A stretch of DNA of 60,129 bases, taken from contig JAUYKA010000007.1 in the NCBI GenBank assembly GCA_030698495.1, positions 1 through 60,129 of the forward strand, read 5' to 3'. The notes under the pieces were generated by a model. The model was not told where the DNA came from and searched no databases. It saw only the letters and a program-made list of their open reading frames with translations. Shown here in pieces: positions 14,397 through 43,858 of the stretch. The DNA is from a bacterium. GTDB taxonomy: Bacteria > Patescibacteriota > Andersenbacteria > UBA10190. Numbering within the stretch: the stretch's first letter is position 1; every line of letters begins with the position of its first letter. Both the position numbers and the translations under genes were made by a program.

Positions 14397-14399
14397 GTG

Positions 14400-14470
14400 T
14401 GGACTCACCGGGAATCGAACCCGGGCCTCGGCAATGCGAATGCCGTGTAATACCACTTTACTATGAGCCC
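14400..14470 (-). tRNA. tRNA-Ala (anticodon CGC)
   Basis: Acceptor GGGCTCA/TGAGTCC with G3:U70, anticodon stem-loop CGGCA-TTCGCAT-TGCCG and T-arm CCGGG-TTCGATT-CCCGG. Confidence 0.85.
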
Positions 14471-14583: not shown

Positions 14584-14820
14584 TTATGTTAACCGCTTTC
14601 GACGAAACGCAAAGCGGGAGGAGGATTTCAGATATCTTTCGAAAGATGTGGCTTTTTCTTCCGTTTTGAAAGCAGCATAGAAAATAAGATCGAATGGAAG
14701 TTTATTCTTTGTGGTAGCCACGTTGCCGCGTTTATCCTCAGCCACCCTCTTTTTTAAATCCTTGGCTGATCCTATGTATATCAGACCGGTTCGTAATTTA
14801 AGTATGTAAGTATAAAACAT
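14584..14820 (-). CDS. Small GIY-YIG nuclease-family protein
   Basis: 78 aa starting MFYTYIL...GLIYIGSAKDLKKR... (GIY...YIG, Arg, later Glu). It lies 172 nt downstream of tRNA-Ala(GGC) on the same strand. Confidence 0.75.
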   Translation of the reverse strand: MFYTYILKLRTGLIYIGSAKDLKKRVAEDKRGNVATTKNKLPFDLIFYAAFKTEEKATSFERYLKSSSRFAFRRKRLT

Positions 14821-14992
14821 ATTTCTTTATTGTAGCCGCACGCCGCTACACAACAAGTTGCGTAGCTATGCGGGGCATGCCACTTCGTTAAAACTACGCG
14901 GCACTCTGCACTTCGCTTCTGATGCAGTATTTTATCTACATCCCAAGGTGACCTGCCACGCGAAGCTCCTCGTGAAAACGAGGAGCGAAGTG

Positions 14993-15065
14993 TGGACCTG
15001 AGGAGGTTCGAACTCCTTGCCTCTTCCATGCCATGGAAGCGCTCTGCCAATTGAGCTACAGGCCC
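14993..15065 (-). tRNA. tRNA-Ala (anticodon GGC)
   Basis: Acceptor GGGCCTG/CAGGTCC with G3:U70, anticodon stem-loop CTTCC-ATGGCAT-GGAAG and T-arm GGAGT-TCGAACC-type. Confidence 0.85.
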
Positions 15066-27375: not shown

Positions 27376-28332
27376 ATGGCAAAGTATCAGAGAATAGGGT
27401 TGCATGTGTCGGCAGCGGGAGGGGTAGAGAACGCGCCAGAGCGCGCAAAAGAGCTGGGCGCAGAGTGCTTTCAGTTTTTCTCGCGCAGTCCGCGGGGCGG
27501 CAAGGCACCGGAGATCGGCGATGAACAAGCACGGCAATTTCAAGAACGATGCGAGAAATACGGTATGGCCAGCTATATTCATACACCCTATTACATAAAT
27601 TTCGCGTCGAAAAAAAACAGCTTGGCCAAGGCGGCGCCGCGGATTGTGCGGGAGGAATTGGAGCGTGGCAGTAAGTTGGGGGTTAAGTACGTGATGACGC
27701 ATTTGGGAAGCGCGCGAGACTGGGACAAAGACAATTTTCAATCTTCCAGCCGTCGCTTAGGAGCTATGGCCGGCGCGGCAATTTCCAATTTCCAAAAACC
27801 GCGGAATGCTTTGAATCAGGTTATTGCTGGTTTGAAGGAAATATATAGTGATTGGCCCCCCGCCGCTTCGCCTACGGCGAAGACTATGGGGGGCGATAAG
27901 AAGTTCTTTACAGAACTTCTTATCGAGATATCGGCGGGGGCCGGGGCGGTTATCGGCGATTCTTTCGAGGAACTCGGATATATCCTGAAAGAGCTGGGTC
28001 GAAGCGATGTGCATGTTTGTTTGGATACCTGCCATATGTTTGCTTCCGGGTATGATATTCGTACGGTTGGAGCGATAGATGAAACCATGCGGCAATTTCA
28101 TAAACACATTGGCATAAACCGATTAAAGCTAGTGCATGTTAATGATTCCAAGGCCGATTTGGGAGAGCATAAGGACAGGCATGAACATATCGGCAAAGGA
28201 AAAATAGGTGAGGCGGGATTTAAGGTGTTGCTGGCACATAAGGATTGGCAAAAGGTTAATTTTATTTTGGAGACAAAACACGATAGTTTGATAAAACATG
28301 ATATGCAGTTTTTGAAGGAGAATAGGAGATAA
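27376..28332 (+). CDS. nfo: Endonuclease IV (AP endonuclease) carrying two in-frame repeat insertions
   Basis: 318 aa with GLHVSAAGG, THLGS, EISAGAG, CLDTCHMFASGYD, VHVNDSK and ILET. The HLGS-to-EISAG spacer is roughly 35 aa longer than in E. coli Nfo as I recall it. Confidence 0.88.
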   Translation: MAKYQRIGLHVSAAGGVENAPERAKELGAECFQFFSRSPRGGKAPEIGDEQARQFQERCEKYGMASYIHTPYYINFASKKNSLAKAAPRIVREELERGSKLGVKYVMTHLGSARDWDKDNFQSSSRRLGAMAGAAISNFQKPRNALNQVIAGLKEIYSDWPPAASPTAKTMGGDKKFFTELLIEISAGAGAVIGDSFEELGYILKELGRSDVHVCLDTCHMFASGYDIRTVGAIDETMRQFHKHIGINRLKLVHVNDSKADLGEHKDRHEHIGKGKIGEAGFKVLLAHKDWQKVNFILETKHDSLIKHDMQFLKENRR

Positions 28333-28411
28333 ATCAAAATGCAAAAATCAAAATGCAAAATGACAAATTAAAATTCAAAAAGATTACTCCGACATATCAG
28401 GTAATTCAAAT

Positions 28412-29044
28412 ATGAATAAGCAAGAAAAAGAGATGGCTTTAGTCAAGCTAAACGATGAATGGGGCAGAAAAGACCTTCCGCTTAAAAGTGTCGCTACTCA
28501 TGCTGTGCCGGGGGAGGGAAATCCGGATACGGATATTTTGTTTATCGGCGAGGCGCCGGGGAAAAACGAGGATGAGCAAGGACGGCCGTTTGTAGGGGCG
28601 GCAGGAAAGTTTTTGGACCAATTAATAGCAGGGATAGGCTATAAACGCGAAGACGTATTTATTGCCAATGTAATCAAGCACCGTCCGCCGGGCAATCGCG
28701 ATCCGCTGCCGGAGGAGATAGAAGCGTATCGGCCGTGGTTGGAGGGACAAATAGAGATTATCAAGGCACACTTGATAATTACGTTAGGGCGCTTTTCCAT
28801 GGAGTTTTTGCTGGGACCAGGTTTTTCCATTACCAAAATACACGGGCAGCCGAAACGTCGTAATGGACGGGTGATAATACCGATGTATCATCCGGCGGCG
28901 GCGCTTTACCGGGGAGATTTAAGGCCGGTGCTGGCGGCGGATTTTGCCAAGATACCAAAGGTGTTGAAATTGATTCGGGAGGGCGAGGCGGTAAGCGAGG
29001 AAAAGAAGAAAGAAGAACAGAAATCACAGAAGTCATTGTTTTAG
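28412..29044 (+). CDS. Uracil-DNA glycosylase, family 4-like
   Basis: 210 aa with the motifs GEAPGKNEDEQGRPFVGAAGKFL and HP(A/S)A near the C-terminus. Confidence 0.85.
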   Translation: MNKQEKEMALVKLNDEWGRKDLPLKSVATHAVPGEGNPDTDILFIGEAPGKNEDEQGRPFVGAAGKFLDQLIAGIGYKREDVFIANVIKHRPPGNRDPLPEEIEAYRPWLEGQIEIIKAHLIITLGRFSMEFLLGPGFSITKIHGQPKRRNGRVIIPMYHPAAALYRGDLRPVLAADFAKIPKVLKLIREGEAVSEEKKKEEQKSQKSLF

Positions 29045-29100
29045 AATTAGAACAAAAGTAGTACAATAATGTTGATATTATACTACTAGTAATATAGATA

Positions 29101-29814
29101 ATGGGTAGGAGATGGCCAAGACTAAAGAGAGCAGAAAATCAGAAGTGGACGGTGGATTTGGCTTATGCTTGCGGTCTTCTGGCTACGGACGGTTCTTTAT
29201 CCAAAGATGGCCGACATATAAACTTGACCTCAAAAGATATCGAACAATTAGAAACATTCAAGCGCTGTCTTGGGCTAACAAATAAGATTGGCTGGAAAAT
29301 AAGCGGGTATACCGGAAAGATGAATTCGCAAGTTCAATTTGGAAATGTTGTTTTATACAGATGGTTGGTTTCGATAGGTATTGGCCCTCATAAAACAAAA
29401 AGTATTGGCGTTGTGAGGATTCCTGATGAATATTTTTTTGATTTTCTGCGGGGTGAATTTGATGGAGATGGATCCTCTCATGCTTATTGGGATACGCGTT
29501 GGCATAGTAGTGTTTCGTTATATATTCAGTTTGTCTGTGCTAGTAAGTGCCATTTAGAGTGGCTACGTACCACCGTTTTTCGTTTAATTGGGTCACGTGG
29601 CGTAATGGGCAAAAGCCGTAGTATTTTTCAATTAAAATTTGCGAAGACACAAGCGCTTCCTTTGTTTGAATCTATGTATTACAGCGGAGATATCCCATAT
29701 TTATCTCGAAAGAAAGAAAAATTAGATCGTCAATGGACGGCATTAAAACAGTCCAAATTGGGAATACTCCCCGAAGGATTTAATCGTAATGGTTCAATTA
29801 TCAAGATAGCTTGA
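29101..29814 (+). CDS. LAGLIDADG homing endonuclease (double-motif)
   Basis: 237 aa with the motifs LAYACGLLATDGS and FLRGEFDGDGS. It ends 35 nt before tRNA-Leu(GAG). Confidence 0.8.
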   Translation: MGRRWPRLKRAENQKWTVDLAYACGLLATDGSLSKDGRHINLTSKDIEQLETFKRCLGLTNKIGWKISGYTGKMNSQVQFGNVVLYRWLVSIGIGPHKTKSIGVVRIPDEYFFDFLRGEFDGDGSSHAYWDTRWHSSVSLYIQFVCASKCHLEWLRTTVFRLIGSRGVMGKSRSIFQLKFAKTQALPLFESMYYSGDIPYLSRKKEKLDRQWTALKQSKLGILPEGFNRNGSIIKIA

Positions 29815-29848
29815 TTTGTACTTGCTATACATATATGCTCCCTAAAGA

Positions 29849-29933
29849 GCGGACGTGCGGAAACCGGTAGACCGGCATGCTTGAGGGGCATGTGAGCTTA
29901 TTGCTCGTGTGGGTTCGAGTCCCACCGTCCGCA
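29849..29933 (+). tRNA. tRNA-Leu (anticodon GAG), class II
   Basis: Acceptor GCGGACG/CGTCCGC, anticodon stem-loop CATGC-TTGAGGG-GCATG, a long variable arm and T-arm GTGGG-TTCGAGT-CCCAC. Confidence 0.88.
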
Positions 29934-29952
29934 CTGAAAGGGCGGTTAGCTT

Positions 29953-29977
29953 CCCCCGTCGCTAAATCTATGGGGGA
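29953..29977. repeat. Short hairpin repeat CCCCC-GTCGCTAAATCTAT-GGGGG
   Basis: It shares the loop core with 55027-55051 (inside rnhB). Related cores lie at 24751, 27746 and 27856. Confidence 0.7.
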
Positions 29978-30006
29978 CACGGCAGTGGTAGGGTTTATTA
30001 AAATAG

Positions 30007-30078
30007 GGGTGAGTAGCTTAGTGGTAGAGCATTCGGCTTACATCCGAAAGGTCGCAGGTTCGATCCCTGCCTCACCCA
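30007..30078 (+). tRNA. tRNA-Val (anticodon TAC)
   Basis: Acceptor GGGTGAG/CTCACCC, anticodon stem-loop TTCGG-CTTACAT-CCGAA and T-arm GCAGG-TTCGATC-CCTGC. Confidence 0.9.
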
Positions 30079-30199
30079 CAAAGTAACTAACTTATGTAGT
30101 ATTGGGTTCGCCCGCCATCACGGCGGGCGGCCGCTGTGTTAGCGGCCGAGTCCCTCACCGCCCACTCTTAGAAATTTGGTTAACTATGAAGTTTGTCTG

Positions 30200-30997
30200 C
30201 TAGTTTTTCTTTTTCGCAACGGCCGCGATGATTTCGGGAGGAGTGAAGTTAATAGGCTTAGTTTTTAGTTGTTCAATGAGTTCCGCGATAGATTGAGCTA
30301 ATTTTTCGTCCTTGAGCATGTTTAGCGCGGCCGAATGAAAACCGGGTAAAACTTGCAGTAATTCGTTGGAATTTGTTTTATTTTCGCTGCGCTGGAAATG
30401 GCGGATTGTATATCGAAGGGGCGTTGGAGACTGATTTAATAGAGTGGGTAATTTTTGCCCCATGTAAGGATCGGTGGAGAAGCGTGAAAAGATGGTAAAG
30501 GCTATTTGCCGAAAACGCTCGATAGTTTCCGGATCGTTGGTACTGTGGAGGGTTTCCCAGTTGTATTCAAGCAACAGCATGTCTTCTTTAGTAACCCTAG
30601 TCAGTTCGGCAAGAATGGGGGCGTGTTTTTCGGACGCGACATTCATAAAAACAAAACGCTGATGAGTAATATCAAAAGCATTATCACTAAAGGGAAGCTG
30701 ACTGGCGTCGGCTTGGACGCCAAGAAAAGGCAGGTTTTGTTCTTGGAGTGATGCTCTCATGTTTTTTAAAACATCTCCTCTGATATCGGCAGGTATATAG
30801 GTGCCTCCCTTTTTGGTAATAAAGGCAGCCAGTTTGTCATTGGGGCCGGCGCCGGCATCAAGTACTTTTCTGTCTTTTAAATCGTAGTCGGTCAGTAATG
30901 CTTCCGAGGCGTGATTGGGATAGTCGATTTGTTTTAGGCGCTTGATTTCTTCCTCGGAAATGGCGGTTTGACGATAGAATTCTTTGTTTTCTGACAT
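30200..30997 (-). CDS. Class I SAM-dependent methyltransferase
   Basis: 265 aa with the motif I-like sequence VLDAGAGPND, an acidic post-I residue (PADI) and QADASQLPF. Confidence 0.7.
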   Translation of the reverse strand: MSENKEFYRQTAISEEEIKRLKQIDYPNHASEALLTDYDLKDRKVLDAGAGPNDKLAAFITKKGGTYIPADIRGDVLKNMRASLQEQNLPFLGVQADASQLPFSDNAFDITHQRFVFMNVASEKHAPILAELTRVTKEDMLLLEYNWETLHSTNDPETIERFRQIAFTIFSRFSTDPYMGQKLPTLLNQSPTPLRYTIRHFQRSENKTNSNELLQVLPGFHSAALNMLKDEKLAQSIAELIEQLKTKPINFTPPEIIAAVAKKKN

Positions 30998-31100
30998 AAG
31001 GTCTACTTAAATATTCTCATTAATATTTGAATCAGACAATACCTAGCGTTGATTTATCTAGTGATATACATCAAGCGAACAAAAATGATATAATAATTTT

Positions 31101-31790
31101 GTGAGTCCCAAAAAACTAATTAACGTGATTAATACTAAATGGTCTCCTCGTCTAGCTTATGGGGTTGGCCTTATTGCTTCAGATGGCTGTTTATCAAAAA
31201 CAACTAAGTTAATAAGTTTTGTTTCAAAAGACTTGGAGCTTGTTTTGTTATTTCAGCGGGCGTTAGATGTTGATAAAAATATAAGAAAAGGACGTAACGG
31301 TAGCTCAAAAGTAAAACGTTATTTTGTAACAGGTTTTAAAAGCAGGTAGTTTCATGATTATTTAATTAGTATTGGAATAACGCCAGCTAAATCAAAAACG
31401 ATCCATTCAGTAAATGTTCCTGATTTTTGTTTTAGCCATTTTTTACGCGGTCTTTTTGATGGGGATGGTACTTTTTGGACAACTTGGGATAAAAGGTGGC
31501 CAAATAGTTTTGTTTATTATCTAGGATATAGTTCTGCCAGTCTGATGTTTACAAAATGGCTGAAAAATGAGTTAACTAGGCTGTATAGCGTAAAGGGTTA
31601 TATTCATGAAGGAAAGGGAGCTTATACAATTAGGTATGTAAAAGGTGATACAAGAAAGTTGTATAGGGTAATGTATTCTGATGCCAAGGATCTTTATTTG
31701 GCCCGCAAGCACGATAAAATTAAACAAGCACTTGATTTTGATTGGCAATTGCACCACAGTAAACCACAAGCCACGGTAGCTCAGTGGTAG
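31101..31790 (+). pseudogene. LAGLIDADG homing endonuclease interrupted by a single in-frame TAG (31347-31349)
   Basis: ORFs 31101-31349 and 31545-31790 share one frame and are read-through-contiguous. The motifs are LAYGVGLIASDGC and FLRGLFDGDGT. The 3' end overlaps tRNA-Phe by 21 nt. Confidence 0.7.
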
Positions 31791-31842
31791 TAGCGCGGCC
31801 CTGAAGAGGCCGGCGTCGTCGGTTCGATTCCGACCCGTGGCA
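31770..31842 (+). tRNA. tRNA-Phe (anticodon GAA)
   Basis: Acceptor GCCACGG/CCGTGGC, anticodon stem-loop CGGCC-CTGAAGA-GGCCG and T-arm GTCGG-TTCGATT-CCGAC. Confidence 0.9.
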
Positions 31843-32026
31843 CAACCTAAATTCAAAGTGCAAAACGAAAAAGGCAAAATAATAGTGTCGCCTAGCGGCG
31901 AAATTTTCTTGCCCTTTGGGACAAAATTGGCTACAAATAATTTACACGACTTAACGCTGAAGCGGGCTTGCCCGCCGACTGTGTCCCTCCGTAGCCTTGT
32001 GCGAAGGGGGAAGCTTAAAAGCGTAG

Positions 32027-32098
32027 GCGGGTATCGTATAGTGGCTTTTACACCTCGTTGCCAACGAGGAAACACGGGTTCGACTCCCGTTACCCGCT
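32027..32098 (+). tRNA. tRNA-Gly (anticodon GCC), discriminator U
   Basis: Acceptor GCGGGTA/TACCCGC, anticodon stem-loop CCTCG-TTGCCAA-CGAGG and T-arm ACGGG-TTCGACT-CCCGT. Confidence 0.88.
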
Positions 32099-32202
32099 CA
32101 CCTAAAAAGTTGCTACATTGAGCGATTGGAAATTCTAAATTGACTACCACTAAATGGAAAGTCGAACTTTCTTTCTAGTTCCTAGAATGAGACAATAAAT
32201 CC

Positions 32203-33096
32203 ATGGATAAAGAAGTCATTAATCACTATTTGGAGTTTGGCATCTATACAAACCCTGGCTTTTACAGGGAAGCCCTTGAAGCACTATCTGATGACATTAA
32301 AGCAACCGGCAATCTTGTTAGAAGTAGCTTTATTCACCGCACGACTCTAGCAATTGGAAATACTGGCACGAATGAAGATTTGAGATTTGGTGATATGAAC
32401 CAGATGCCTTGGTATCGCCAGCCCGAAGACGATGTATTGGTTACTACTCCTGCAATGCTTGCTGAGCTGTATAGACGAGACTCCCGAGGTTTTATAGAAG
32501 ATAGAGCGCCTGAAAATAAACTAGTACTAACTTGTAGGTATGTGGCTGTACTGATGGCATCTATCCTTAAATCAAAAGGTATACCGACTCGTGTGCGTGC
32601 TGGTCATGCTCCATATTTTGATATGGGAGAATTGGGAAAAGTAAGTACCGACCATTGGATTAACCAGTATTGGGATAGCGAGAAAAACCACTGGATTACA
32701 ATTGATGTAGACGGAAGCTGGAGCCTGAATGAAAAGTTTAACCCTTACGATATTCCAGATAATGCTTTTGACTTTGCTGCTGATGCTTGGATAAAGGTTC
32801 GCAGCGGAGATGTTGACCCGGATTATTTCTACAACGCGAAACCAGAGAGAGGAACTATTGTCGTACTATGGTCACTGTTTTATGACTTTCATTGCCTCAT
32901 GAACAATGAGATTCCCTACATACATATTCCTAAATATGGAAGATACGATACCTTTAAGACGCTAGGTGATACAGAATACGCAAAAATTGATAGGCTCGCT
33001 GAATTAATGGTGAAGCCAGATGATAACCTTCAAGAACTAAAGCAGGTTTGGGAGGCTGACAGAGATTTTCGCCTCCTTACAGGTGGGTTGCTTTAA
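32203..33096 (+). CDS. Transglutaminase-like cysteine protease-fold protein
   Basis: 297 aa with a candidate Cys-His-Asp triad (CRYVAVLMASILKSKGIPTR, DHWINQYW, ITIDVD). Confidence 0.65.
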   Translation: MDKEVINHYLEFGIYTNPGFYREALEALSDDIKATGNLVRSSFIHRTTLAIGNTGTNEDLRFGDMNQMPWYRQPEDDVLVTTPAMLAELYRRDSRGFIEDRAPENKLVLTCRYVAVLMASILKSKGIPTRVRAGHAPYFDMGELGKVSTDHWINQYWDSEKNHWITIDVDGSWSLNEKFNPYDIPDNAFDFAADAWIKVRSGDVDPDYFYNAKPERGTIVVLWSLFYDFHCLMNNEIPYIHIPKYGRYDTFKTLGDTEYAKIDRLAELMVKPDDNLQELKQVWEADRDFRLLTGGLL

Positions 33097-33309
33097 GAAT
33101 AGTTGGCAATAACTAACCTGTTTTCCGATACAAAAAAGGTTCGAATGCGGTCCACAAAGAAGCTCTAATTAAGTAATCGCAGACGCGATTATTTATATAG
33201 AAGCCTCCTTGTCTTGATTATAACTTTGAGGTATCCCCGCCCGAGGCGGGGCTAAGCCGTAGCGCAAACTCTAAGCGCACGAAGAGTGGACCGAAGAGCT
33301 ACCAAGATG

Positions 33310-34062
33310 TTAATTTTCTCCCAGAGCCTGGTTATATTGCTCTTGGGCCTGATTGACTTGAGCGCGGGTATTATTGAGATTGTTGTTTAGTCTTTCGCTG
33401 CGCAGTTTGATTAGTTGGTCGCGATTTTGCTCGCGCCGGGTTTGAATATTGTTTAGGGTTTCTTGGCGCCTTTGAATCGCTTCGGCGCGGTTTTCTTCCC
33501 GCTGGCGCAGTCTTTCTTCTGAATTAGCCGTATTCGTTGCTTTGTTGTTACGAAATTGCTGCAGGAGTTCTGTGCGATGTTGGCGCCAGGCTTGGATTCG
33601 TTCCAGCGCAGCTTGTCCCAATTCTTGCTGCTTGGCGATGTAAGCCTCGGTACGCTGCTGCAGCTGTTTTTGCGCGGCTTGGATTTTGTCGACGCATTTT
33701 TCATCGCCAAGATCGGCGCAAGCGGCCATTTTCCGGTCCAGTTCGTGCAGGCGGAAGCGGTAGAAGGCGGCTTTTTTCTCGGCGTTGAAAGTGAAAACAC
33801 TAATAACATTATTGCGTAAGTTCTCCCACCAGTAAGCGATGGGGTTGGCGGTAGGGAGCGCTTCCGCTTCCAGGTCAGTGGCGAGATCTTCATCGGTTAA
33901 ACCTTCGCTGTCAAAAACAGATGCCGCTGTCTGTTCGTCTGATGCTGTGTTTTCCGTGGCGTCATCAGTGGAGGACGGAGTAGACGTAACAACGGCGCCA
34001 GCGGAAGCGGACGGCAGCAAAAGGACAGCTAAAAGCAAGGAGAAGGCCAAAATTGAGCGCAT
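33310..34062 (-). CDS. Secreted acidic and coiled-coil protein, function unknown
   Basis: 250 aa with a signal peptide, an Asp/Glu/Thr-rich segment and a Gln/Arg-rich helical C-terminal half. Confidence 0.55.
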   Translation of the reverse strand: MRSILAFSLLLAVLLLPSASAGAVVTSTPSSTDDATENTASDEQTAASVFDSEGLTDEDLATDLEAEALPTANPIAYWWENLRNNVISVFTFNAEKKAAFYRFRLHELDRKMAACADLGDEKCVDKIQAAQKQLQQRTEAYIAKQQELGQAALERIQAWRQHRTELLQQFRNNKATNTANSEERLRQREENRAEAIQRRQETLNNIQTRREQNRDQLIKLRSERLNNNLNNTRAQVNQAQEQYNQALGEN

Positions 34063-34181
34063 AGATGAAGATTGAAGGATAATTTATTTAATTATATCAC
34101 TGAAGGATGTAAGCTCATAATATGTATTTTATAGCTATTTATAGCCATTATTATCTATTGACAAGAGGTCGGAAATGGTGC

Positions 34182-34210
34182 TTGACATAATATAGCCCCT
34201 GTGCTATAGT
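34182..34210 (+). promoter_or_regulatory. Strong sigma70-like promoter, TTGACA-17 nt-TATAGT
   Basis: TTGACA lies at 34182-34187 and TATAGT at 34205-34210. A second TTGACA lies at 34158. Confidence 0.6.
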
Positions 34211-34221
34211 GTTCGGTTTTA

Positions 34222-34255
34222 AGCCTGACAGCGTAATAACCTGCCAGGCTTTTTT
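34222..34255 (+). promoter_or_regulatory. 5'-proximal stem-loop plus U-run directly after the predicted transcription start
   Basis: AGCCTGACAG-CGTAATAAC-CTGCCAGGCT-TTTTT starts about 5 nt after the expected +1 and lies 60 nt before the ATG at 34314. Confidence 0.45.
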
Positions 34256-34313
34256 GTTGGCCGCAAAAGGTCAATTCCGGTTGATTAGCCGGGTTTACAA
34301 GTGATCACCTTCT

Positions 34314-35006
34314 ATGATTTCAGGCATTTTAGCCCGAAACCAACATAACAATGTGAAATTAGTGTGGCTGGCGGCTCTGATTGTTTTCGTAGTCAGCACA
34401 TTAATGCCGAATAACGTTTTGGCCTTTGAGGCAAAGCTGCCCTTGGCTGTGACGCCTAAATTTGTAGCCCAGACACATCTGGCTGGTACCGCAAGGACTA
34501 AGCTGGATCCGTATTTGGCAAAAGCGATTAACGGCTTACCTGATTATCAATATATGCAAAGCGGCAGTGCGTTGGGCGCCAGTTCCCCCATTACTGAAAA
34601 GGGTAATTGGCCGGCAGCGCCGGTTAAGGTTAAAAAGGTGGCCTACAATGTCCCCAAAGGACCCTTGCCTACTTCCGGGAATCTATTAGTTATGGAAGGC
34701 CAGGCCAGCTTTTACAGTCGGGAAGGGTGCTTGGGTTGCAACCCCTTGCGCATTATGGCCAACGGACAGCCTTTGAACGATAACGCTCTAACTATGGCAA
34801 TTGGCGCTGATAAAGTGCATCTGGTGGGCCATAGGGCGCGTGTAACCAGTTTGGCCACGGGTAAGTCGGTTGAGGTGTTGATTACGGACACGGGCGGGTT
34901 TTACCGAGATAAGTACGGTAACCGCGTGGCCGATCTTACTATTGCTACCAAACAGGCTATTGGCATGAACGGAGGGTTGGGCCAGGTGAGAGTGGAAGTG
35001 TTTTAA
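34314..35006 (+). CDS. RlpA-like double-psi beta-barrel (lytic transglycosylase-like) secreted protein
   Basis: 230 aa with a signal/TM segment. The C-terminal sequence GQASFYS...ANGQPLNDNALTMA...VTSLATGKSVEVLITDTGGF...VADLT matches the RlpA/DPBB pattern. Confidence 0.72.
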   Translation: MISGILARNQHNNVKLVWLAALIVFVVSTLMPNNVLAFEAKLPLAVTPKFVAQTHLAGTARTKLDPYLAKAINGLPDYQYMQSGSALGASSPITEKGNWPAAPVKVKKVAYNVPKGPLPTSGNLLVMEGQASFYSREGCLGCNPLRIMANGQPLNDNALTMAIGADKVHLVGHRARVTSLATGKSVEVLITDTGGFYRDKYGNRVADLTIATKQAIGMNGGLGQVRVEVF

Positions 35007-35012
35007 GGAAAA

Positions 35013-35038
35013 CAGCCCCTTAATCAGGGGCTGTTTTT
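35013..35038. terminator. Intrinsic terminator
   Basis: CAGCCCCT-TAATC-AGGGGCTG-TTTTT, 7 nt after the stop at 35006. An A-run on the other side allows bidirectional use. Confidence 0.7.
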
Positions 35039-35045
35039 AAGTAAT

Positions 35046-35235
35046 GTTTTTCTCGCCGGGTGATGCTTCTCGCGATACCTACTCTTGGCGGCATACTTGT
35101 CCAGCCCAGCGGCTGGACTGCGCTCGACTAAAAGCCTGCCGCTCCGCCCTCTAGGCGGAGACCATGCCGGCAGGCTTTTAGACGACCGCCGAGAGTAGGC
35201 ACCGCGAGCATCACCCGACGCCCCGTTCTGTCTCA
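35046..35235. ncRNA. Candidate structured RNA/element 'L1' (three-way junction; homolog at 53731-53920), strand unresolved
   Basis: A long closing helix pairs 35056-35091 with 35186-35220. It encloses hairpin A (TCCAGCC-CAGC-GGCTGGA), the conserved single-stranded GCGCTCGACT and a 50-nt hairpin B. The stems covary with the second copy. Confidence 0.45.
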
Positions 35236-35336
35236 AAAAACAATACCGATAATTAGGTTAGATAGGTGAAGTTGTTATTAATTTCATAACACTCTCACGC
35301 TGGCAGAGAAGAGAGAAGGGGAGAGAGGAGTGGGTA

Positions 35337-35365
35337 TTGACGGATTTTGATATGTGTGATACAAT
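35337..35365 (+). promoter_or_regulatory. Strong sigma70-like promoter with extended -10, TTGACG-17 nt-(TGA)TACAAT
   Basis: TTGACG lies at 35337-35342 and TG-A-TACAAT at 35357-35365. Confidence 0.6.
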
Positions 35366-35373
35366 GAAGATGT

Positions 35374-35401
35374 AGCTTGATTCATCCCAATCAAGCTTTT
35401 T
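35374..35401 (+). promoter_or_regulatory. 5'-proximal stem-loop plus U-run directly after the predicted transcription start
   Basis: AGCTTGATT-CATCCC-AATCAAGCT-TTTT begins about 2-3 nt after the expected +1. The layout matches 34222-34255. Confidence 0.45.
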
Positions 35402-35464
35402 AGTACCTGGGGTTGACCGCATTAGGGCGGCGCCTTAAAGGGAAATGTTCTTCTTCGTGACTAT

Positions 35465-36082
35465 ATGAATAACCACCCGTCGGGGGTTAAACGAATAGGA
35501 GATTATCTGGCTGCCTTCTGGAAGGCGGTGCGCGAGATGTCTTGGGACACGTTGCATCTTATTCCTGTGGCGGCTTTTTTGTTTGTCAGTAGTGTGCCGA
35601 GTGAGTCTCTGGCTTTCGCGGAACAAGTGGAGTTAGCCCAGAAGCCTTTGATTTTTGAGCGCGATCCCAGCCTGGCCAGTACGGCGATTGTCGGGATTGA
35701 GGCTTGGCCGAAACAGCGTACGGCAGGAGGAGTGCTGGGATCCGGTGTTTCCCGCATACCCGACGCGGCTAAGGAGATTAAAGAAGGCACGGCAATTCGG
35801 GTGTTGTCCACGGCGTATTCTTCTACTTACGATCAAACCGATGCTAATCCTTGGGGGACAGCTTCCGGGACACGCGTACATATGGGCACAATGGCAGCCA
35901 ATTTTCTGCCGTTTGGCACCAAGGTGAGAATCGGCAACACGGTCTATACGGTGGAGGATCGCCTGAACGCGCGCTATAACGGGAAATATATCATTGATAT
36001 CTGGCAGCCTAGTCGGGAAGCGGCGTTGAGGTATGGCGTGCGTGTGGTGGAGATAGAAGTTGTATCGGTGCCATCAGAGTAA
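35465..36082 (+). CDS. 3D-domain (MltA/YabE-like) cell-wall-active protein
   Basis: 205 aa. The C-terminal sequence STAYSS...DANPWGTASGTRV..GT.AAN.LPFGTKVRIGN.VYTVEDR...IDIW is typical of 3D domains. An alternative start lies at 35537. Confidence 0.72.
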   Translation: MNNHPSGVKRIGDYLAAFWKAVREMSWDTLHLIPVAAFLFVSSVPSESLAFAEQVELAQKPLIFERDPSLASTAIVGIEAWPKQRTAGGVLGSGVSRIPDAAKEIKEGTAIRVLSTAYSSTYDQTDANPWGTASGTRVHMGTMAANFLPFGTKVRIGNTVYTVEDRLNARYNGKYIIDIWQPSREAALRYGVRVVEIEVVSVPSE

Positions 36083-36156
36083 ATACAGTAAATTAAGTAA
36101 ATACAGTGAATACAGTTGCTGTACTCGCTGAATTTACTGTATTAACTGTACTCGCT
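36079..36156. repeat. Word-built palindrome, 'TAAATACAG' dialect, overlapping the stop codon of the 3D-domain gene
   Basis: G-TAA-ATACAGTAAATTAAGTAAATACAGTGAATACAG ... CTGAATTTACTGTATTAACTGTACTCGCT. The TAA stop at 36080-36082 is part of the first word. Confidence 0.7.
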
Positions 36157-36224
36157 GGTATGGCCTTGCTATTTTCGTGATATTCGCTATACTTGCTTTT
36201 ACCTTTAGCTAATAGTGCTCTGAT

Positions 36225-36743
36225 ATGGACCTGATCAGATATTTTGAAAAAAAGCAGATTGATAATATTGATCGTCCGCGTTTGCGAGCGGGTGATGTGG
36301 TGCGCGTGGAAACAAAGATACAGGAAGGCGAAAAAGCGCGGTTGCAGACGTTCGAAGGCACCGTATTGGGGGTACGCGGCAGTGGACCTTCGCGGACATT
36401 TACAGTCAGGCGGGAGATCGGCAAGTTTGGTGTGGAGCGTATATTCCCGCTTTTTAGCCCGTTGATTACCAATATCGAAATTACCAGACGACAGAAAGTG
36501 CGTCGGGCTAAGTTGAATTACTTGCGGGAAGTCGGCAAGCGGCGCGTTAAAGAAGACGAGCTGTCCATGCAAAGATACGTGAAGGAAGAAGGGGATAAGA
36601 AGCGGCTGGCGGAGGAGGCTGTCCGACGGGAAGAGGAAGAGAAAATAAAAGCGGAAGCGGAAGTAAAGAAGCAAGTGGAAGCGGTAAAAGAGCAGCCAGA
36701 AAACGAAACTCAAATCGAAAAAGACGCGCCTCCTAAAGAATAA
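36225..36743 (+). CDS. rplS: 50S ribosomal protein L19 with a Glu/Lys-rich C-terminal extension
   Basis: The sequence ...RPRLRAGDVVRVETKIQEGEKARLQTFEGTVLGVRGSG..RTFTVRR...GVERIFPLFSP is followed by about 55 extra residues. Confidence 0.92.
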   Translation: MDLIRYFEKKQIDNIDRPRLRAGDVVRVETKIQEGEKARLQTFEGTVLGVRGSGPSRTFTVRREIGKFGVERIFPLFSPLITNIEITRRQKVRRAKLNYLREVGKRRVKEDELSMQRYVKEEGDKKRLAEEAVRREEEEKIKAEAEVKKQVEAVKEQPENETQIEKDAPPKE

Positions 36744-36776
36744 TTGTCGAACTTATAAATTGATAAATGTTATGTA

Positions 36777-36805
36777 AGCGCCGGTTGTAGATACCGGCGC
36801 TTTCT
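36777..36805 (+). terminator. Intrinsic terminator after rplS
   Basis: AGCGCCGGT-TGTAGAT-ACCGGCGCT-TTCT. Confidence 0.6.
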
Positions 36806-36823
36806 GGTATTACATGAAGACAA

Positions 36824-36898
36824 GGCGCGGTGGCGATGTAGCTAACGCGACGGTTTGTCTCGCTACGCGGGATCTGGCGTAACCATGACAAAACCTTA
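36824..36898 (+). other. 5' portion of a tRNA-like gene (copy A of a duplicated segment)
   Basis: GGCGCGG at 36824-36830 can pair with CTGCGCC at 37304-37310. Positions 36856-36895 repeat at 37240-37279 with 39 of 40 nt identical. Confidence 0.4.
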
Positions 36899-36910
36899 AT
36901 CTTTGTAGAT

Positions 36911-37153
36911 ATGCCCTATTATGTGTATATTCTTAAAAGTCTAAAGAATAATGATTTATATGTAGGTAGTACGGAGAATGTTGAGCAACGTCTATTCTTA
37001 AAGGGTAGTGTAAAATCAACAAAAGGATATCGTCCATGGGTACTTCTTGAATGCTATACTTACTACACTAGAAGTGACGCCGTGAAGCAAGAGAGGCACT
37101 TTAAACAACATCAACAAAAAGAATTGTTGAGAGCAAAACATAAGGCCGAGTAG
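36911..37153 (+). CDS. Small GIY-YIG nuclease-family protein
   Basis: 80 aa starting MPYYVYILKS..NDLYVGSTENVEQR... The stop codon lies 10 nt inside tRNA-Cys. Confidence 0.75.
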   Translation: MPYYVYILKSLKNNDLYVGSTENVEQRLFLKGSVKSTKGYRPWVLLECYTYYTRSDAVKQERHFKQHQQKELLRAKHKAE

Positions 37154-37215
37154 CCAAGTAGTAAGGCAGAGGTCTGCAAAACCTCTATACGCGAGTGCAA
37201 TTCTCGCCTCGGCCT
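37144..37215 (+). tRNA. tRNA-Cys (anticodon GCA), discriminator U73, unusual T-loop TGCAATT
   Basis: Acceptor GGCCGAG/CTCGGCC, anticodon stem-loop GAGGT-CTGCAAA-ACCTC and T-arm GCGAG-TGCAATT-CTCGC. Confidence 0.8.
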
Positions 37216-37217
37216 CA

Positions 37218-37313
37218 AGGTGATGGTAAGGCGGGGGTCTGTCTCGCTACGCGGGATCTGGCGTAGCCATGACAAAACCCTTATACATGGGTGCAAATCC
37301 CATCTGCGCCCCA
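37218..37313 (+). other. 3' portion of a tRNA-like gene (copy B of the duplicated segment plus T-arm and acceptor 3' strand)
   Basis: The repeat copy lies at 37240-37279, followed by ATGGG-TGCAAAT-CCCAT and CTGCGCC-C-CA. I could not fold a convincing anticodon arm. Confidence 0.4.
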
Positions 37314-37368
37314 ATAAAACTTATAGGGTATACGTTTAGGATTATGAATAATGTACTATTACCTTTTA

Positions 37369-37377
37369 TGGTATAAT
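37369..37377 (+). promoter_or_regulatory. Extended -10 element TGG-TATAAT, 7 nt upstream of the HNH gene's ATG
   Basis: TG lies at 37369-37370, TATAAT at 37372-37377 and ATG at 37384. This implies a leaderless transcript. Confidence 0.45.
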
Positions 37378-37383
37378 TTAAAG

Positions 37384-37863
37384 ATGGGTAGTCGAAGATC
37401 TTGGACAGCTAGCCAACTTAAAAGCGCTGTAAAAACATCATTGAGTTACCGTCAAGTAATAGAAAAACTTGGTCTTCGCCCAGCGGGTGGTAATTATTAT
37501 CAACTTCAAAAGTATGTTAAGGAATATGGACTTGATACTTCTCACTTTAAGGGTAGCGCTTGGAATAAGGGGTTGAAAGGAATTGGGAAGCCGCGTATAA
37601 AGATTAAAGATATCTTAGTTAAGGGAAGTACTTTCCAAAGCTATAAGCTAAAACAAAGGCTATTTAAAGAAAATCTTAAGCCTCAAAAATGTGAAATTTG
37701 TGGCTGGTCAGAACGAACATCTACTGGTCATTTGCCACTTGAAGTTGATCATATTAATGGTGATAGAACAGATCACAGGCTTAAAAACCTGAGAATTCTT
37801 TGCCCTAATTGTCACAGTTTGACTCCTAACTATAGATATCGTAGAGGTAAGAGTAAAAAATAA
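37384..37863 (+). CDS. HNH homing-type endonuclease
   Basis: CEICGW...LEVDHINGDRTDHRLKNLRILCPNCH (an HNH/zinc motif). The ORF could extend to 37351, but the -10 box lies inside that extension. It ends 3 nt before tRNA-Leu(TAA). Confidence 0.8.
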   Translation: MGSRRSWTASQLKSAVKTSLSYRQVIEKLGLRPAGGNYYQLQKYVKEYGLDTSHFKGSAWNKGLKGIGKPRIKIKDILVKGSTFQSYKLKQRLFKENLKPQKCEICGWSERTSTGHLPLEVDHINGDRTDHRLKNLRILCPNCHSLTPNYRYRRGKSKK

Positions 37864-37866
37864 CTT

Positions 37867-37948
37867 GCCCGGGTGGTGGAACTGGTTTACACGCACGACT
37901 TAAGATCGTGTGCCGCAAGGCATGTGGGTTCGAATCCCACTCCGGGCA
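37867..37948 (+). tRNA. tRNA-Leu (anticodon TAA), class II
   Basis: Acceptor GCCCGGG/TCCGGGC, anticodon stem-loop CACGA-CTTAAGA-TCGTG, variable arm GCC-GCAA-GGC and T-arm GTGGG-TTCGAAT-CCCAC. Confidence 0.88.
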
Positions 37949-38157
37949 CAGTGATCCGTACCCCATAAAGTAGACACGGAGGTACAATGTCCATGATTTC
38001 TTTTGTTAGAATTAATCATTAACAAAAGAACATGAGAACAATATTTTCAAATAAACAAATCGCGCGGTTAAAAAAGAATCCGTGCGTATGGCACGTTAGC
38101 GAACGCTCGATTACATCAATCGCAACCGCGCGGCGTAAGAAAACGCAAAAGGTAAAA

Positions 38158-40416: not shown

Positions 40417-40426
40417 GTGTGATGTG

Positions 40427-40498
40427 TGGGCCCGGCAGGGGTCGAACCTGCGACCACGCGCTTATAAGACGCGCGCTCTACCACTGAGCTACGGACCC
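40427..40498 (-). tRNA. tRNA-Ile (anticodon TAT)
   Basis: The reverse complement reads GGGTCCG...GAGC-G-CGCGT-CTTATAA-GCGCG-TGGTC-GCAGG-TTCGACC-CCTGC-CGGGCCC-A. Confidence 0.82.
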
Positions 40499-40559
40499 AA
40501 TTCTCGTATACTCTTTATTGCACCTTTTAATTATTTTGGCTATAGTTTTTTTGTTTCCA

Positions 40560-40632
40560 GCGCGTGTAGCTCAGTGGTTAGAGCGCCACATTGACATTGT
40601 GGAGGCCGGTGGTTCGATCCCACCCTCGCGCA
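40560..40632 (+). tRNA. tRNA-Val (anticodon GAC)
   Basis: Acceptor GCGCGTG/CTCGCGC (one U-U mismatch), anticodon stem-loop CCACA-TTGACAT-TGTGG and T-arm GGTGG-TTCGATC-CCACC. Confidence 0.85.
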
Positions 40633-40639
40633 CAGATAG

Positions 40640-40758
40640 AGTCAGGGCAACAGAGGATTGATGTGGTGGAGCTTCAAAAGTTTGCGAAGATGTATGAGAA
40701 AGATGTCAGTTATTTTTTAAACAGATTCAACTATAATTTCAATAACCGGCGTTTATGA
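40640..40758 (+). pseudogene. Start-less 3' remnant of an XRE/HTH-type gene abutting tRNA-Val
   Basis: The frame reads ...GQQRIDVVELQKFAKMYEKDVSYFLNRFNYNFNNRRL*. It has no start codon because the frame runs back into the tRNA. Its stop overlaps the ATG at 40755 as ATGA. Confidence 0.3.
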
Positions 40759-41333
40759 TTACAGATTCGCAAATTTTCATAGTGGTTGATATCGAGGCAG
40801 ACGGACCGGCAGTTGGCCTTAATTCGATGCTCAGTCTTGCGGCGGTAGCCACGACTACCGACAAGGAAGTGTCTCATTTTTATCGAAAAATCACACCGCT
40901 ACCCGGCGCATCCGCTGACCCCGGTACGACTCTGTGGTGGAAGGAACATCCAGATGCATGGAAAGAAGCGACTTCTGACTCTGAGGAACCTGAACGCGTT
41001 ATGGTCGACTTCTTTCGTTGGGTAATAGAGCTAGGACGCGAGCCGATATTCGTTTCAAATCCCACGAGTCTCGACTACACTTTTGTCAGTTGGTATTTAT
41101 TCCGCTTCGCGCAGGGCAATCCTTTCAAGAATGAAAAAAACAGTATTCGCGCCCTCGATCTTAAATCCTACGTGGCCGGAAAATATAGTTTAACGTTCGA
41201 CAAGGCAAGGCGTGTATATTGGCCCGAAGAATTAATCAAGGGCATGCCGAATCATACGCATAATGCGCTTGACGACGCAAAAGGATATGCTGTAGTATTG
41301 CGCAACCTTATCGCTATGCGCGATAAGTCTTGA
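40755..41333 (+). CDS. DEDDh (DnaQ-like) 3'-5' exonuclease domain protein
   Basis: 192 aa with Exo I VVDIEADGP and Exo III HNALDDAKGYA. Confidence 0.68.
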   Translation: MITDSQIFIVVDIEADGPAVGLNSMLSLAAVATTTDKEVSHFYRKITPLPGASADPGTTLWWKEHPDAWKEATSDSEEPERVMVDFFRWVIELGREPIFVSNPTSLDYTFVSWYLFRFAQGNPFKNEKNSIRALDLKSYVAGKYSLTFDKARRVYWPEELIKGMPNHTHNALDDAKGYAVVLRNLIAMRDKS

Positions 41334-41354
41334 TCTTTGAAAAAGGAGCGCCAG

Positions 41355-42059
41355 ATGCGAAAGACAATTGTCACTGCGGCCGGGCCTAATATGGCTCCGG
41401 TTCTTACTACGTTCGCCCTTCCGTTATTCGCTTCGTTTGCGGACCGTCACAGCTATAGGATGCAGGTGACGTATGTGACGGAAGATGACGCAGACCGATG
41501 GAGCGCAACCGCAAAAAGCGTCCGATGGCAAAAACTGCGTCTGATTAGGTCGGCCCTAGAACAAAGCGATGTCGTCGTATGGTTCGACGCGGATGTGCTG
41601 ATTTGTCGATCTGATACGGATATCGTTGATTTACTCGGCACGACCGACTACCAAGGCCTCGTACTCCACTCGGTACCATCCGAAAACCGAATTAATCCCA
41701 ACACTGGAGTATGGGTGATCAGAAATACCGAGAAAGCTTTTCGGTTTCTGGATACTGCCATGGAAATCGGTATACCGGCAGGCCGTTGGGCTGATCAAGG
41801 GGCAGTATTACGAGCACTCGGGTGGGTTCTCGGTAACGAGCACTATGACGGTGCGCGAATGCCCGATAAACCGACCGAATTTATGCACGGCACCACGTGG
41901 CTACCGATCGGCTGGAATCAGCCGTACTTGGAAAAGTATCTTTGCCGGCCAATGGATCCGAATCCGTTTGCCGTCCACTTCATGGGAATGTCTATTGCCG
42001 ATCGCATGAAATACATGCGGGAGGTCGCAGACCGTTATGCAAACCAGAGACCCGAATAG
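41355..42059 (+). CDS. Nucleotide-diphospho-sugar (GT-A, GMA12/MNN10- or DUF273-like) glycosyltransferase
   Basis: ATG at 41355 follows AAGGAG. The motifs are a DxD in VVWFDADVLI and NTGVWVIRN. The assignment rests on resemblance only. Confidence 0.55.
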   Translation: MRKTIVTAAGPNMAPVLTTFALPLFASFADRHSYRMQVTYVTEDDADRWSATAKSVRWQKLRLIRSALEQSDVVVWFDADVLICRSDTDIVDLLGTTDYQGLVLHSVPSENRINPNTGVWVIRNTEKAFRFLDTAMEIGIPAGRWADQGAVLRALGWVLGNEHYDGARMPDKPTEFMHGTTWLPIGWNQPYLEKYLCRPMDPNPFAVHFMGMSIADRMKYMREVADRYANQRPE

Positions 42060-42068
42060 GAGGGCAAG

Positions 42069-42851
42069 ATGTCAAACCAATCCGCAAAACGTCTCGTGCT
42101 TGGATTTAAGGTTCTCAAGAAAGTTCCAGCGGTTCTTCGTCCGCTGACAGATCATGTTGTGGCATGTTATCGTCGCCACCACGCTGACCTGCAATCAGTC
42201 TTCGTCATAGGTAGTGTTGCTGTAGGAGAATGGACGGAAGGAGTGAGTGACGTGGATGTCGTCGGCGTGGTGGATCACGCGTTCACAACCGAAGATGAGG
42301 ATCCACGACGGCACGAATTGACAGAGCTTGGAAAATCTTTTCCTCAGGTGTCGTTCATCAACAATTCGACACTCAGTCTAGAAGCGCTGCAGGAGAAAAA
42401 TCCCGACGCGATGTCAATCGATCGAGCGAGAATTATAGCAGTGACAGGGCTGCTCGTATCGGGCCAGAAACTGGACTTCCACGATTACCTTCCGACGGTC
42501 GAAGCAATGGCCTACGGACGCGCAGCTCGCGCTAAGATACTGATGGGGAGATATCGACTCGGTATCATCAACGAACCGTTTCGAAGCAACCCTAAGTTAC
42601 TCGCGCGTTCGTGCGCAAAAGCGGCTATTCGCGTGCTGTCAGGCATAACCATTCTTCGTGGCGCGATATTTTATGCTTCTCCCCATAAAACAGCCGCAAT
42701 GGTCACGAGATATGCACCAGAGGCAGTGCCTCTCGCATACAGAGCTCTCGCAATCGTGGATGGTGCCGTGTCAGAACCGAACGAGGCGATGGGTATTGCC
42801 GAGCAAGCCGTAGAGATGTTCTACGAGCTGTACCCTGAACCTTTGGCTTGA
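42069..42851 (+). CDS. Nucleotidyltransferase-fold protein (AadA/ANT-like architecture)
   Basis: 260 aa with AGGAGG 6 nt upstream, the NTase motif VFVIGSVAVGEWTEGVSDVDVVGVVD and a helical C-terminal domain. Confidence 0.6.
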   Translation: MSNQSAKRLVLGFKVLKKVPAVLRPLTDHVVACYRRHHADLQSVFVIGSVAVGEWTEGVSDVDVVGVVDHAFTTEDEDPRRHELTELGKSFPQVSFINNSTLSLEALQEKNPDAMSIDRARIIAVTGLLVSGQKLDFHDYLPTVEAMAYGRAARAKILMGRYRLGIINEPFRSNPKLLARSCAKAAIRVLSGITILRGAIFYASPHKTAAMVTRYAPEAVPLAYRALAIVDGAVSEPNEAMGIAEQAVEMFYELYPEPLA

Positions 42852-42855
42852 ACAA

Positions 42856-42889
42856 CCTCCGCGCACACAATTGTGCGGAGGCCTTTTTT
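42856..42889 (+). terminator. Intrinsic terminator of the three-gene operon
   Basis: CCTCCGCGCACA-CAAT-TGTGCGGAGG-CCTTTTTT. Confidence 0.72.
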
Positions 42890-43855: not shown

Positions 43856-43858
43856 AAA

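Follow-up and report, generated by a model that had tools for sequence, protein, structure and literature searches.

Why does every homing-endonuclease-type gene in one piece of a bacterial chromosome lie beside a transfer RNA (tRNA) gene? The question is raised by a contig of the patescibacterial lineage Andersenbacteria (GenBank JAUYKA010000007.1, positions 1 to 60,129; "the window" below means this whole stretch of 60,129 nucleotides). It carries two LAGLIDADG genes (LAG1 and LAG2), two GIY-YIG genes (GIY1 and GIY2) and one HNH gene, which an initial annotation had described as five nuclease open reading frames (ORFs) welded to tRNA genes. We lean towards the view, slightly favoured by the sequence comparisons below, that these are free-standing homing-endonuclease-type genes, long-lived and specialised on the 5′ flanks of particular Patescibacteria tRNA genes. 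The nuclease genes and the tRNA genes around them, the latter called by both ARAGORN and Rfam, are as follows.

14399..14470, − strand: tRNA-Ala(CGC), 3′ of GIY2
14584..14820, − strand: GIY2, 78-aa GIY-YIG protein between two tRNA-Ala genes (Pfam, E = 4e-13)
14992..15065, − strand: tRNA-Ala(GGC), 5′ of GIY2
29101..29814, + strand: LAG1, intact two-motif LAGLIDADG endonuclease gene, 237 aa (Pfam LAGLIDADG_3, E = 5e-6)
29849..29934, + strand: tRNA-Leu(GAG), partner of LAG1
30007..30079, + strand: tRNA-Val(TAC), second member of the array
31101..31790, + strand: LAG2, LAGLIDADG paralogue overlapping tRNA-Phe by 21 nt (Pfam LAGLIDADG_3, E = 2e-7)
31770..31843, + strand: tRNA-Phe(GAA), partner of LAG2
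32027..32099, + strand: tRNA-Gly(GCC), array member without a nuclease gene 5′ of it in the window
36911..37153, + strand: GIY1, 80-aa GIY-YIG protein overlapping tRNA-Cys by 10 nt (Pfam, E = 1e-11)
37144..37216, + strand: tRNA-Cys(GCA), partner of GIY1
37384..37863 (37351 alternative), + strand: HNH endonuclease gene, 159 aa, between tRNA-Cys and tRNA-Leu(TAA) (Pfam HNH, E = 8e-6)
37867..37949, + strand: tRNA-Leu(TAA), partner of the HNH gene

ARAGORN and Rfam are concordant on 13 tRNA genes in the window, and together with Pfam they bear out the initial annotation in that all five ORFs encode the nuclease domains ascribed to them, each beside a same-strand tRNA. The overlaps with tRNA-Phe (21 nt) and tRNA-Cys (10 nt) had been given correctly, and the distances hold within one base: 34 nt to tRNA-Leu(GAG), 3 nt to tRNA-Leu(TAA) and 171 nt after tRNA-Ala(GGC). 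This last ORF, GIY2, is better placed as lying 113 nt upstream of tRNA-Ala(CGC). Domains and placement thus stand for all five; what does not stand is that LAG2 is intact, as it has an in-frame TAG, and that the GIY ORFs are Seg-like. Searches by tblastn, and by Pfam and NCBIfam on the unassigned ORFs, found no further LAGLIDADG, GIY-YIG or HNH ORF in the window. An origin from group I introns or tRNA introns is out, the tRNAs being uninterrupted and Rfam showing tRNAs only.

The placement is also non-random and common to the three nuclease folds, as had been supposed: in 80 related loci (single loci carry L numbers here), with the ORFs used to select the loci left out, 7 of 10 nuclease ORFs stood directly 5′ of a same-strand tRNA, versus 44 of 656 other ORFs (6.7%; Fisher p = 1e-6).

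Beyond this enrichment, a pairing of one nuclease lineage with one tRNA identity, recurring across Patescibacteria, is supported. The LAG1 family has more than 1,444 database matches and at least 520 GTDB species loci or species representatives; its neighbourhoods were counted in the 80 best-matching genome loci, two of which stop at a contig edge. A same-strand tRNA-Leu lies directly 3′ of the LAG1 orthologue in 78 of the 78 complete loci, with the anticodon GAG in 76, AAG in one and CAG in one. The gap from stop codon to tRNA runs from −36 to +46 nt, and about 40% of loci have the stop within the tRNA. Upstream, the neighbours vary by lineage (udg, tRNA-Leu(CAG), tRNA-Val(GAC) and others). 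The AAG and CAG tRNA-Leu genes (L073 4661-4745 and L079 3265-3349) come from bins labelled Deltaproteobacteria and Chloroflexi; these labels could stem from wrongly binned contigs, or LAG1 may have been transferred beyond the Candidate Phyla Radiation (CPR).

LAG1 is predicted to adopt the α-β-β-α-β-β-α pseudo-dimeric fold of the monomeric homing endonuclease family. Its two motifs read GLLATDGSL and FLRGEFDGDGS; D121-G124 is invariant among 16 homologues and D30 is kept in at least 90% of them. The AlphaFold model (predicted local distance difference test, pLDDT, 87) has I-Tsp061I as its top Foldseek match (PDB 2DCH; E = 8e-12, template-modelling score 0.64/0.73), followed by E-DreI, I-AniI, I-DmoI and I-SceI; WhiA is also among the structural matches. 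A profile comparison with 2DCH gave E = 8e-9, so that 2DCH is best in both sequence and structure. LAG1 is not in a self-splicing intron or intein: it is a free-standing ORF with an intact tRNA downstream, and Rfam finds no group I intron. Across deep lineages its identity is 45-55%, about equal to that of FtsH. The LAG1 tree sorts by synteny class and holds no near-identical copies in differing contexts, so LAG1 looks mainly vertical and old. Its phage relatives are the endonucleases that split the DNA polymerase genes of T5-like phages.

The HNH gene matches both Pfam HNH and HNH_3, and its motif CxxC...DH.N...N...CxxCH is complete with the zinc cysteines. Nine residues are invariant in 25 sequences, phage ones included (C103, C106, D122, H123, N125, N135, C140, C143 and H144). 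A conserved stretch of 100 residues at the N terminus is predicted to be helical and gives weak matches only to winged-helix/HTH DNA-binding domains. The family comprises 3,899 matches at 65-78% identity. In all six complete cases (the window, L008, L081, L083, L084 and L211), the gene stands directly before tRNA-Leu(TAA), 3′ of tRNA-Cys in five of these loci and 3′ of tRNA-Gly in L084. Among the few genomes compared, HNH proteins are 60-77% identical where IF-2 is 37-49%, NusA 49% and trigger factor 35% identical, and their identity ranking is the reverse of the IF-2 ranking; in a comparison of similarly few genomes, GIY1 too is much more conserved than IF-2, with the rank order reversed. The HNH identity pattern suggests horizontal movement. 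Full-length HNH homologues at 37-48% identity occur in 275 phage records; those of Gordonia phage GodonK, Escherichia phage EcSzw-2 and cyanophage S-CRM01 stand within arrays of tRNA genes, the ORF stopping 1 nt short of the following tRNA or reaching 10 nt into it.

The two GIY-YIG proteins are 30% identical to each other. In the alignment Y6, Y17, G19 and R27 are invariant and E61 is kept in at least 90% of sequences, whereas the His-Asn that follows the catalytic R27 is gone from both window copies: in GIY1 a 2-aa deletion has removed it and GIY2 reads Asp-Lys at this point, while nearly all other aligned sequences keep the His. Both proteins consist of the catalytic domain only, and their nearest solved relatives are the UPF0213 proteins 1ZG2 and 1YWL. 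GIY1 orthologues lie directly 5′ of tRNA-Cys(GCA) in the window and in five further genomes (within L205-L212), one of which, L211, reproduces the whole window order of GIY, tRNA-Cys, HNH and tRNA-Leu(TAA). In L211 (3536-3887; also L212, 43-394) a second GIY-YIG copy, in two reading frames, stands directly 5′ of the intact GIY1 orthologue. L205 (4580-5872) and L206 share an identical GIY1 protein and the same upstream genes, but differ past tRNA-Leu(TAA), downstream of which a serine recombinase gene is called in L205 and no gene in L206. The tRNA-Cys(GCA) T arm has GTGCAAT or GTGCGAA instead of the usual GTTCGAAT in the window (37144-37216) and in L178, L046, L021, L180, L041 and L006.

GIY1 and its tRNA are bracketed by a direct repeat:

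36843..36900, + strand: 58-nt repeat, copy 1, ending 10 nt before the GIY1 start
37227..37284, + strand: 58-nt repeat, copy 2, starting 11 nt after tRNA-Cys, upstream of the HNH gene

The copies are 88% identical, and the element is also found directly 5′ of the GIY1 orthologues in L209, L211 and L212. As a structured RNA it was rejected, its folding being no better than that of shuffles. A 21-nt part of it matches window positions 12420-12440 on the minus strand.

LAG2 is 35% identical to LAG1 and keeps both LAGLIDADG motifs. It has a single in-frame TAG at 31347-31349, which is also present in assembled population contigs, and the window copy is a pseudogene. An orthologue in L059 (4137-4850) abuts tRNA-Phe(GAA) with a 10-nt overlap, which makes the pairing two out of two loci. 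Other GIY-YIG ORFs precede tRNA-Val(TAC), tRNA-Gly(GCC) (L050 and L006), tRNA-Leu(CAG), tRNA-Leu(TAA) and tRNA-Leu(GAG); in this last case (L199 and L165) they occupy the LAG1 site, so that differing nucleases use one site. An HTH-LAGLIDADG ORF precedes tRNA-Ser(GCT). Two clusters were not counted since Pfam shows no nuclease domain in them: an HNH-like one before tRNA-Phe/tRNA-Arg, and an HTH protein one before tRNA-Gly/tRNA-Ile.

If these genes come and go at tRNA genes, sites with and without them should exist, and such presence/absence polymorphism is found both at the nfo-udg sites of LAG1 and in the tRNA-Cys/tRNA-Leu(TAA) spacing for HNH. The occupied order nfo-udg-LAG1-tRNA-Leu(GAG) is seen in the window, L001-L005 and L187, and the empty order nfo-udg-tRNA-Leu(GAG) in L203, L149, L159 and L164; in other CPR-type arrays rplS directly abuts tRNA-Leu(GAG). 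An unselected metagenome sample was scanned with a pattern of the 3′ half of tRNA-Leu(GAG) that is not CPR-specific; most of the resulting 120 loci belong to other bacteria, and of the 19 usable CPR-type arrays only 3 have LAG1. The distance from tRNA-Cys to tRNA-Leu(TAA) is bimodal, being 1-21 nt in 14 loci and 63-145 nt in 4, and 562-650 nt in the 5 loci with the HNH gene between. LAG2 and GIY are polymorphic as well, between compact and occupied arrays. The array order Leu(GAG)-Val(TAC)-Phe(GAA)-Gly(GCC)-Cys(GCA)-Leu(TAA) is conserved, and a compact, insert-free version of it occurs in L058, L041, L053, L111 and L178. Homology between empty L149 and occupied L126 starts at ATTGCTTGA, and an extra 12-mer match upstream is not significant; a remnant of the LAG1 3′ end in L149 is unsupported, and this site may either have lost the gene or never have held it.

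Decay is seen alongside absence. Independent single nonsense codons interrupt the window LAG2 and genes in L041 and L049, the second GIY-YIG copy in L211 is frameshifted, and both window GIYs have lost the conserved dipeptide. Recoding of stop codons is out, because TAG, TGA and TAA occur at differing positions, each one base change away.

For tRNA-Leu(GAG) we propose the following promoter element from the sequence:

29811..29839, + strand: putative sigma-70-type promoter of tRNA-Leu(GAG) (TTGATT, 17 nt, TATGCT, 9 nt to the mature 5′ end)

LAG1 ends ...ATA GCT TGA, and its stop codon (29812-29814) lies within the −35 box of this putative promoter. An element TTGAnn-(16-17)-TAnnnT is found 9-11 nt from the tRNA in 9 occupied relatives, and in empty sites it lies 9 nt (L149, L203) or 19-20 nt (L159, L164) from the tRNA; being 3′ of the ORF and shared with empty sites, it would let the tRNA keep its own promoter downstream of LAG1. 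The arrangement is clade-dependent. Only about one quarter of the 78 LAG1 loci have a clear −10 box at a distance of 8-12 nt from the tRNA. For clades in which LAG1 extends into the tRNA, the ORF end is the only place left for a tRNA promoter, and some of these clades have a good −35/−10 pair 8-12 nt from the tRNA. The nucleases themselves have candidate boxes: an extended −10 box, TGaTATAAT, 6 nt before the GTG start of LAG2; TGgTATAAT 6 nt before the ATG of HNH; and TACAAT 8 nt before the ATG of GIY2. This suggests leaderless transcripts from promoters of their own. A generic promoter and terminator scan gave matches not above shuffled controls and did not list the tRNA-Leu(GAG) promoter, so that these promoter assignments rest on conserved position in relatives and stay putative.

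Taken as homing-type genes, the pairs LAG1-tRNA-Leu(GAG), LAG2-tRNA-Phe(GAA), GIY1-tRNA-Cys(GCA) and HNH-tRNA-Leu(TAA) might work as follows. The nuclease would cut a nuclease-free allele at or near the tRNA gene or tRNA-tRNA junction, and the break would be repaired from an occupied allele imported by the cell. The conserved tRNA gene, or for HNH the two of them, would serve both as recognition sequence and as homology arm usable across diverged genomes, allowing the nuclease gene to persist and sometimes to move between such genomes. Insertion just upstream of the promoter or mature 5′ end would leave the tRNA unharmed, and an ORF end that overlaps the tRNA promoter or 5′ end could weld the pair through genome rearrangements. 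The life cycle would run from gain through long vertical retention to decay and loss. The window genes look like stages of it, with LAG1 and HNH intact, LAG2 carrying a nonsense codon and both GIYs without the catalytic-site dipeptide.

Several observations weigh against this reading. Nuclease activity is putative only, and cleavage of empty alleles, copying through repair and tRNA genes as targets are steps that we infer. No consistent differences were found between the tRNA sequences of occupied and empty sites, so self-immunity would have to stem from the insertion itself, and lineages share no conserved sequence on the upstream side of the insertion point. Tight geometry alone is not special, since in these compact genomes the ordinary genes rplS, udg, ftsH and rbfA likewise border on tRNAs, at 1-30 nt. 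GIY1 and GIY2, at 78-80 aa, have no C-terminal DNA-binding domain or linker. The apparently old and mostly vertical descent of LAG1 is unusual for a purely selfish gene. Finally, an empty-site variant was not seen in the organism's own population, although the assembled contigs used for this, taken from three groundwater runs and aligned to 28300-38100, are uninformative, their joints being cross-matches between other organisms' tRNAs.

Vertical descent and strong conservation would also be expected, albeit we think it unlikely, if LAG1 and HNH had been domesticated and were kept for a cell function at or near their tRNA gene, either as regulators that bind the tRNA promoter in the manner of WhiA or as factors that stimulate repair or gene conversion and thereby maintain single-copy tRNA genes. 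Conservation at or above that of housekeeping genes (HNH versus IF-2, LAG1 versus FtsH), a LAG1 tree that tracks synteny, a LAG1 stop codon embedded in the tRNA −35 box and the structural match to WhiA all fit such a role. Against it, syntenic relatives do without these genes, as do most of the unselected CPR arrays (LAG1 in 3 of 19), and nonsense and frameshift copies are tolerated. The catalytic residues, needless for a pure DNA-binding regulator, are kept, and three unrelated folds, with differing folds at one tRNA, are a better fit to a parasite niche.

A related idea, to which we likewise give a low probability, is that of an ancient, tRNA-identity-specific nuclease set, with one lineage per tRNA, that acts as a driver of gene conversion on incoming DNA: a chromosomal gene-drive or tRNA-maintenance system and not decaying selfish DNA. 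If that were true, tRNA alleles and arrays would be kept or spread in populations of naturally DNA-importing cells, and nuclease-tRNA modules would be exchanged with phage tRNA arrays.

Passive accumulation is less likely still. Here tRNA flanks would merely be rare permissive non-coding spots where any small selfish gene could survive, and vertical linkage would account for the pairing, without the nuclease having to recognise the tRNA gene. The flanks of tRNA genes are classic integration hot spots, ordinary genes in these compact genomes abut tRNAs too, and LAG1 is mainly vertical; yet passive linkage does not account for fidelity to one tRNA despite differing upstream neighbours, for an invariably 5′, same-strand position, for the same HNH geometry in unrelated phage genomes, or for an HNH gene far more conserved than its flanking genes and discordant with them in rank.

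The initial annotation had also offered hijacking of tRNA transcription and processing signals; on that idea the ORF would be co-transcribed with the tRNA and freed by RNase P/RNase Z (tRNA punctuation), the tRNA serving as promoter, processing site or 3′ stabiliser; ORF and tRNA must indeed share transcripts in the roughly 40% of LAG1 loci with the stop inside the tRNA, other gaps are a few nt, and the HNH gene is enclosed by a tRNA pair, and in phages by tRNA arrays that are presumably polycistronic, so that this could be a secondary benefit in the overlap clades, but as the main logic it is improbable, given a putative tRNA-Leu(GAG) promoter that lies 3′ of the LAG1 stop in the window clade, the candidate −10 boxes of LAG2, HNH and GIY2 themselves 6-8 nt before their starts, and a one-lineage/one-tRNA fidelity that hijacking leaves unexplained.

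The preferred reading, of long-lived homing-type genes specialised on tRNA 5′ flanks, can be set beside known systems. Homing endonuclease genes occur in introns, in inteins and free-standing in phages, including phage tRNA clusters, and phage T5 has HNH nickases in its tRNA region. The comparison with phage seg/mob genes made at the outset is apt, as phage HNH homologues take the same position in phage tRNA arrays and as T4 SegB, a GIY-YIG enzyme encoded in the T4 tRNA cluster, recognises the T-ψ-C motif of tRNA genes and drives the inheritance of itself and the neighbouring tRNA genes (PMC2330249). Like SegB, the genes described here are free-standing nuclease genes among tRNA genes and are missing from relatives. 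SegB, however, is a phage protein with a DNA-binding region whose cleavage and homing have been demonstrated (PMC2330249), whereas the present genes, known from sequence, belong to cellular chromosomes, with catalytic-domain-only GIYs and one lineage per tRNA. The description of the GIY ORFs as homing endonucleases was an overcall in this respect, since without a DNA-binding domain their architecture is not that of I-TevI or Seg proteins.

HNH genes are reported to be frequent in the tRNA arrays of phages, plasmids and mycobacteria (PMC5966550, PMC6409571). Unlike the phage tRNA-array genes, the CPR HNH gene occupies the sole tRNA-Cys/tRNA-Leu(TAA) pair of its chromosome; its conservation across deep lineages is 60-77%, and the tRNA 3′ of it is always the same. 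CPR LAGLIDADG genes have been described in ribosomal RNA (rRNA) insertions (PMC11270868, PMC7143001, PMC11809585). LAG1 shares its fold and two-motif monomeric form with them and with I-Tsp061I (2DCH) of an archaeal rRNA intron; the CPR enzymes also share its host phylum and are likewise tied to a highly conserved RNA gene. In contrast to these, LAG1 lies outside both intron and RNA gene, just upstream of the tRNA or its promoter.

In size and domain-only architecture GIY1 and GIY2 resemble the stand-alone GIY-YIG proteins of the UPF0213/YhbQ family (1ZG2, 1YWL), but the window copies lack the conserved His-Asn; to our knowledge, no tRNA linkage is known for that family. Like WhiA, LAG1 represents a LAGLIDADG fold long kept in bacterial chromosomes. 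WhiA has lost the catalytic acidic residues and has an HTH domain; in LAG1, by contrast, both acidic residues remain, and many relatives have no LAG1. In the literature outside subscription journals we found no account of nucleases welded to CPR chromosomal tRNA genes, nor of a pairing of one nuclease lineage with one tRNA.

What these loci present, then, is three nuclease folds that occupy, across a huge bacterial phylum with few cultured members, the 5′ flanks of particular tRNA genes in the chromosome, and that rival core translation genes in conservation. Should tRNA genes be the targets, their flanks would be a fourth safe harbour for such elements, a route of gene flow between very diverged small genomes and the home of a large natural family of rare cutters with predictable targets. 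For annotation, nuclease ORFs account for many odd overlaps between coding sequences and tRNAs in CPR genomes, and a tRNA promoter can sit within an ORF end.

The window itself is an ordinary chromosome segment of an ultra-small bacterium, with gyrA, rpsA, nusA, tig, clpP, rny, nfo, udg, rplS, rluD, ftsH, rnhB, rnc and smc. Its DNA is found in groundwater metagenomes, and its relatives are Patescibacteria. GC skew is above 0 in all 2-kb bins of positions 1-60129 (0.06-0.28), and the cumulative skew climbs and never turns. One-directional GC skew of this type occurs in UBA1400 Microgenomates genomes (PMC7143001); unlike this skew parallel, the nuclease and housekeeping genes of the window are nearest to Andersenbacteria-like genomes.

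Other observations concern further tRNA genes. Between tRNA-Ala(CGC) and tRNA-Pro(CGG), positions 14160-14395 hold a 97-bp tandem repeat of 2.5 copies (88% matches), which contains three terminator-like hairpins, GGTCGCGTAAGCGACC and then a T run, on the minus strand and about 97 nt apart. Beside the divergent tRNA-Ile(TAT)/tRNA-Val(GAC) genes, accessory-looking genes at 40426-44762 comprise a DEDDh-type exonuclease, a sugar-nucleotide transferase-like gene, a nucleotidyltransferase, and a Doc toxin (43430-43855, − strand) with an HTH_17 partner (43859-44140, − strand); this may be an island beside tRNAs. In L074 (3-2756) a 918-aa frame, open from the contig start and 66% identical to the window FtsH, has a LAGLIDADG domain at residues 185-390, which suggests an intein in ftsH, and ends 3 nt before tRNA-Ile(TAT).

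At 3357-6767 (− strand) the window encodes six consecutive small membrane proteins with the motif GG..Y..S.GD...(A/S)..AK, one of them with four repeats; similar genes in L209 are recorded as T4SS_pilin.

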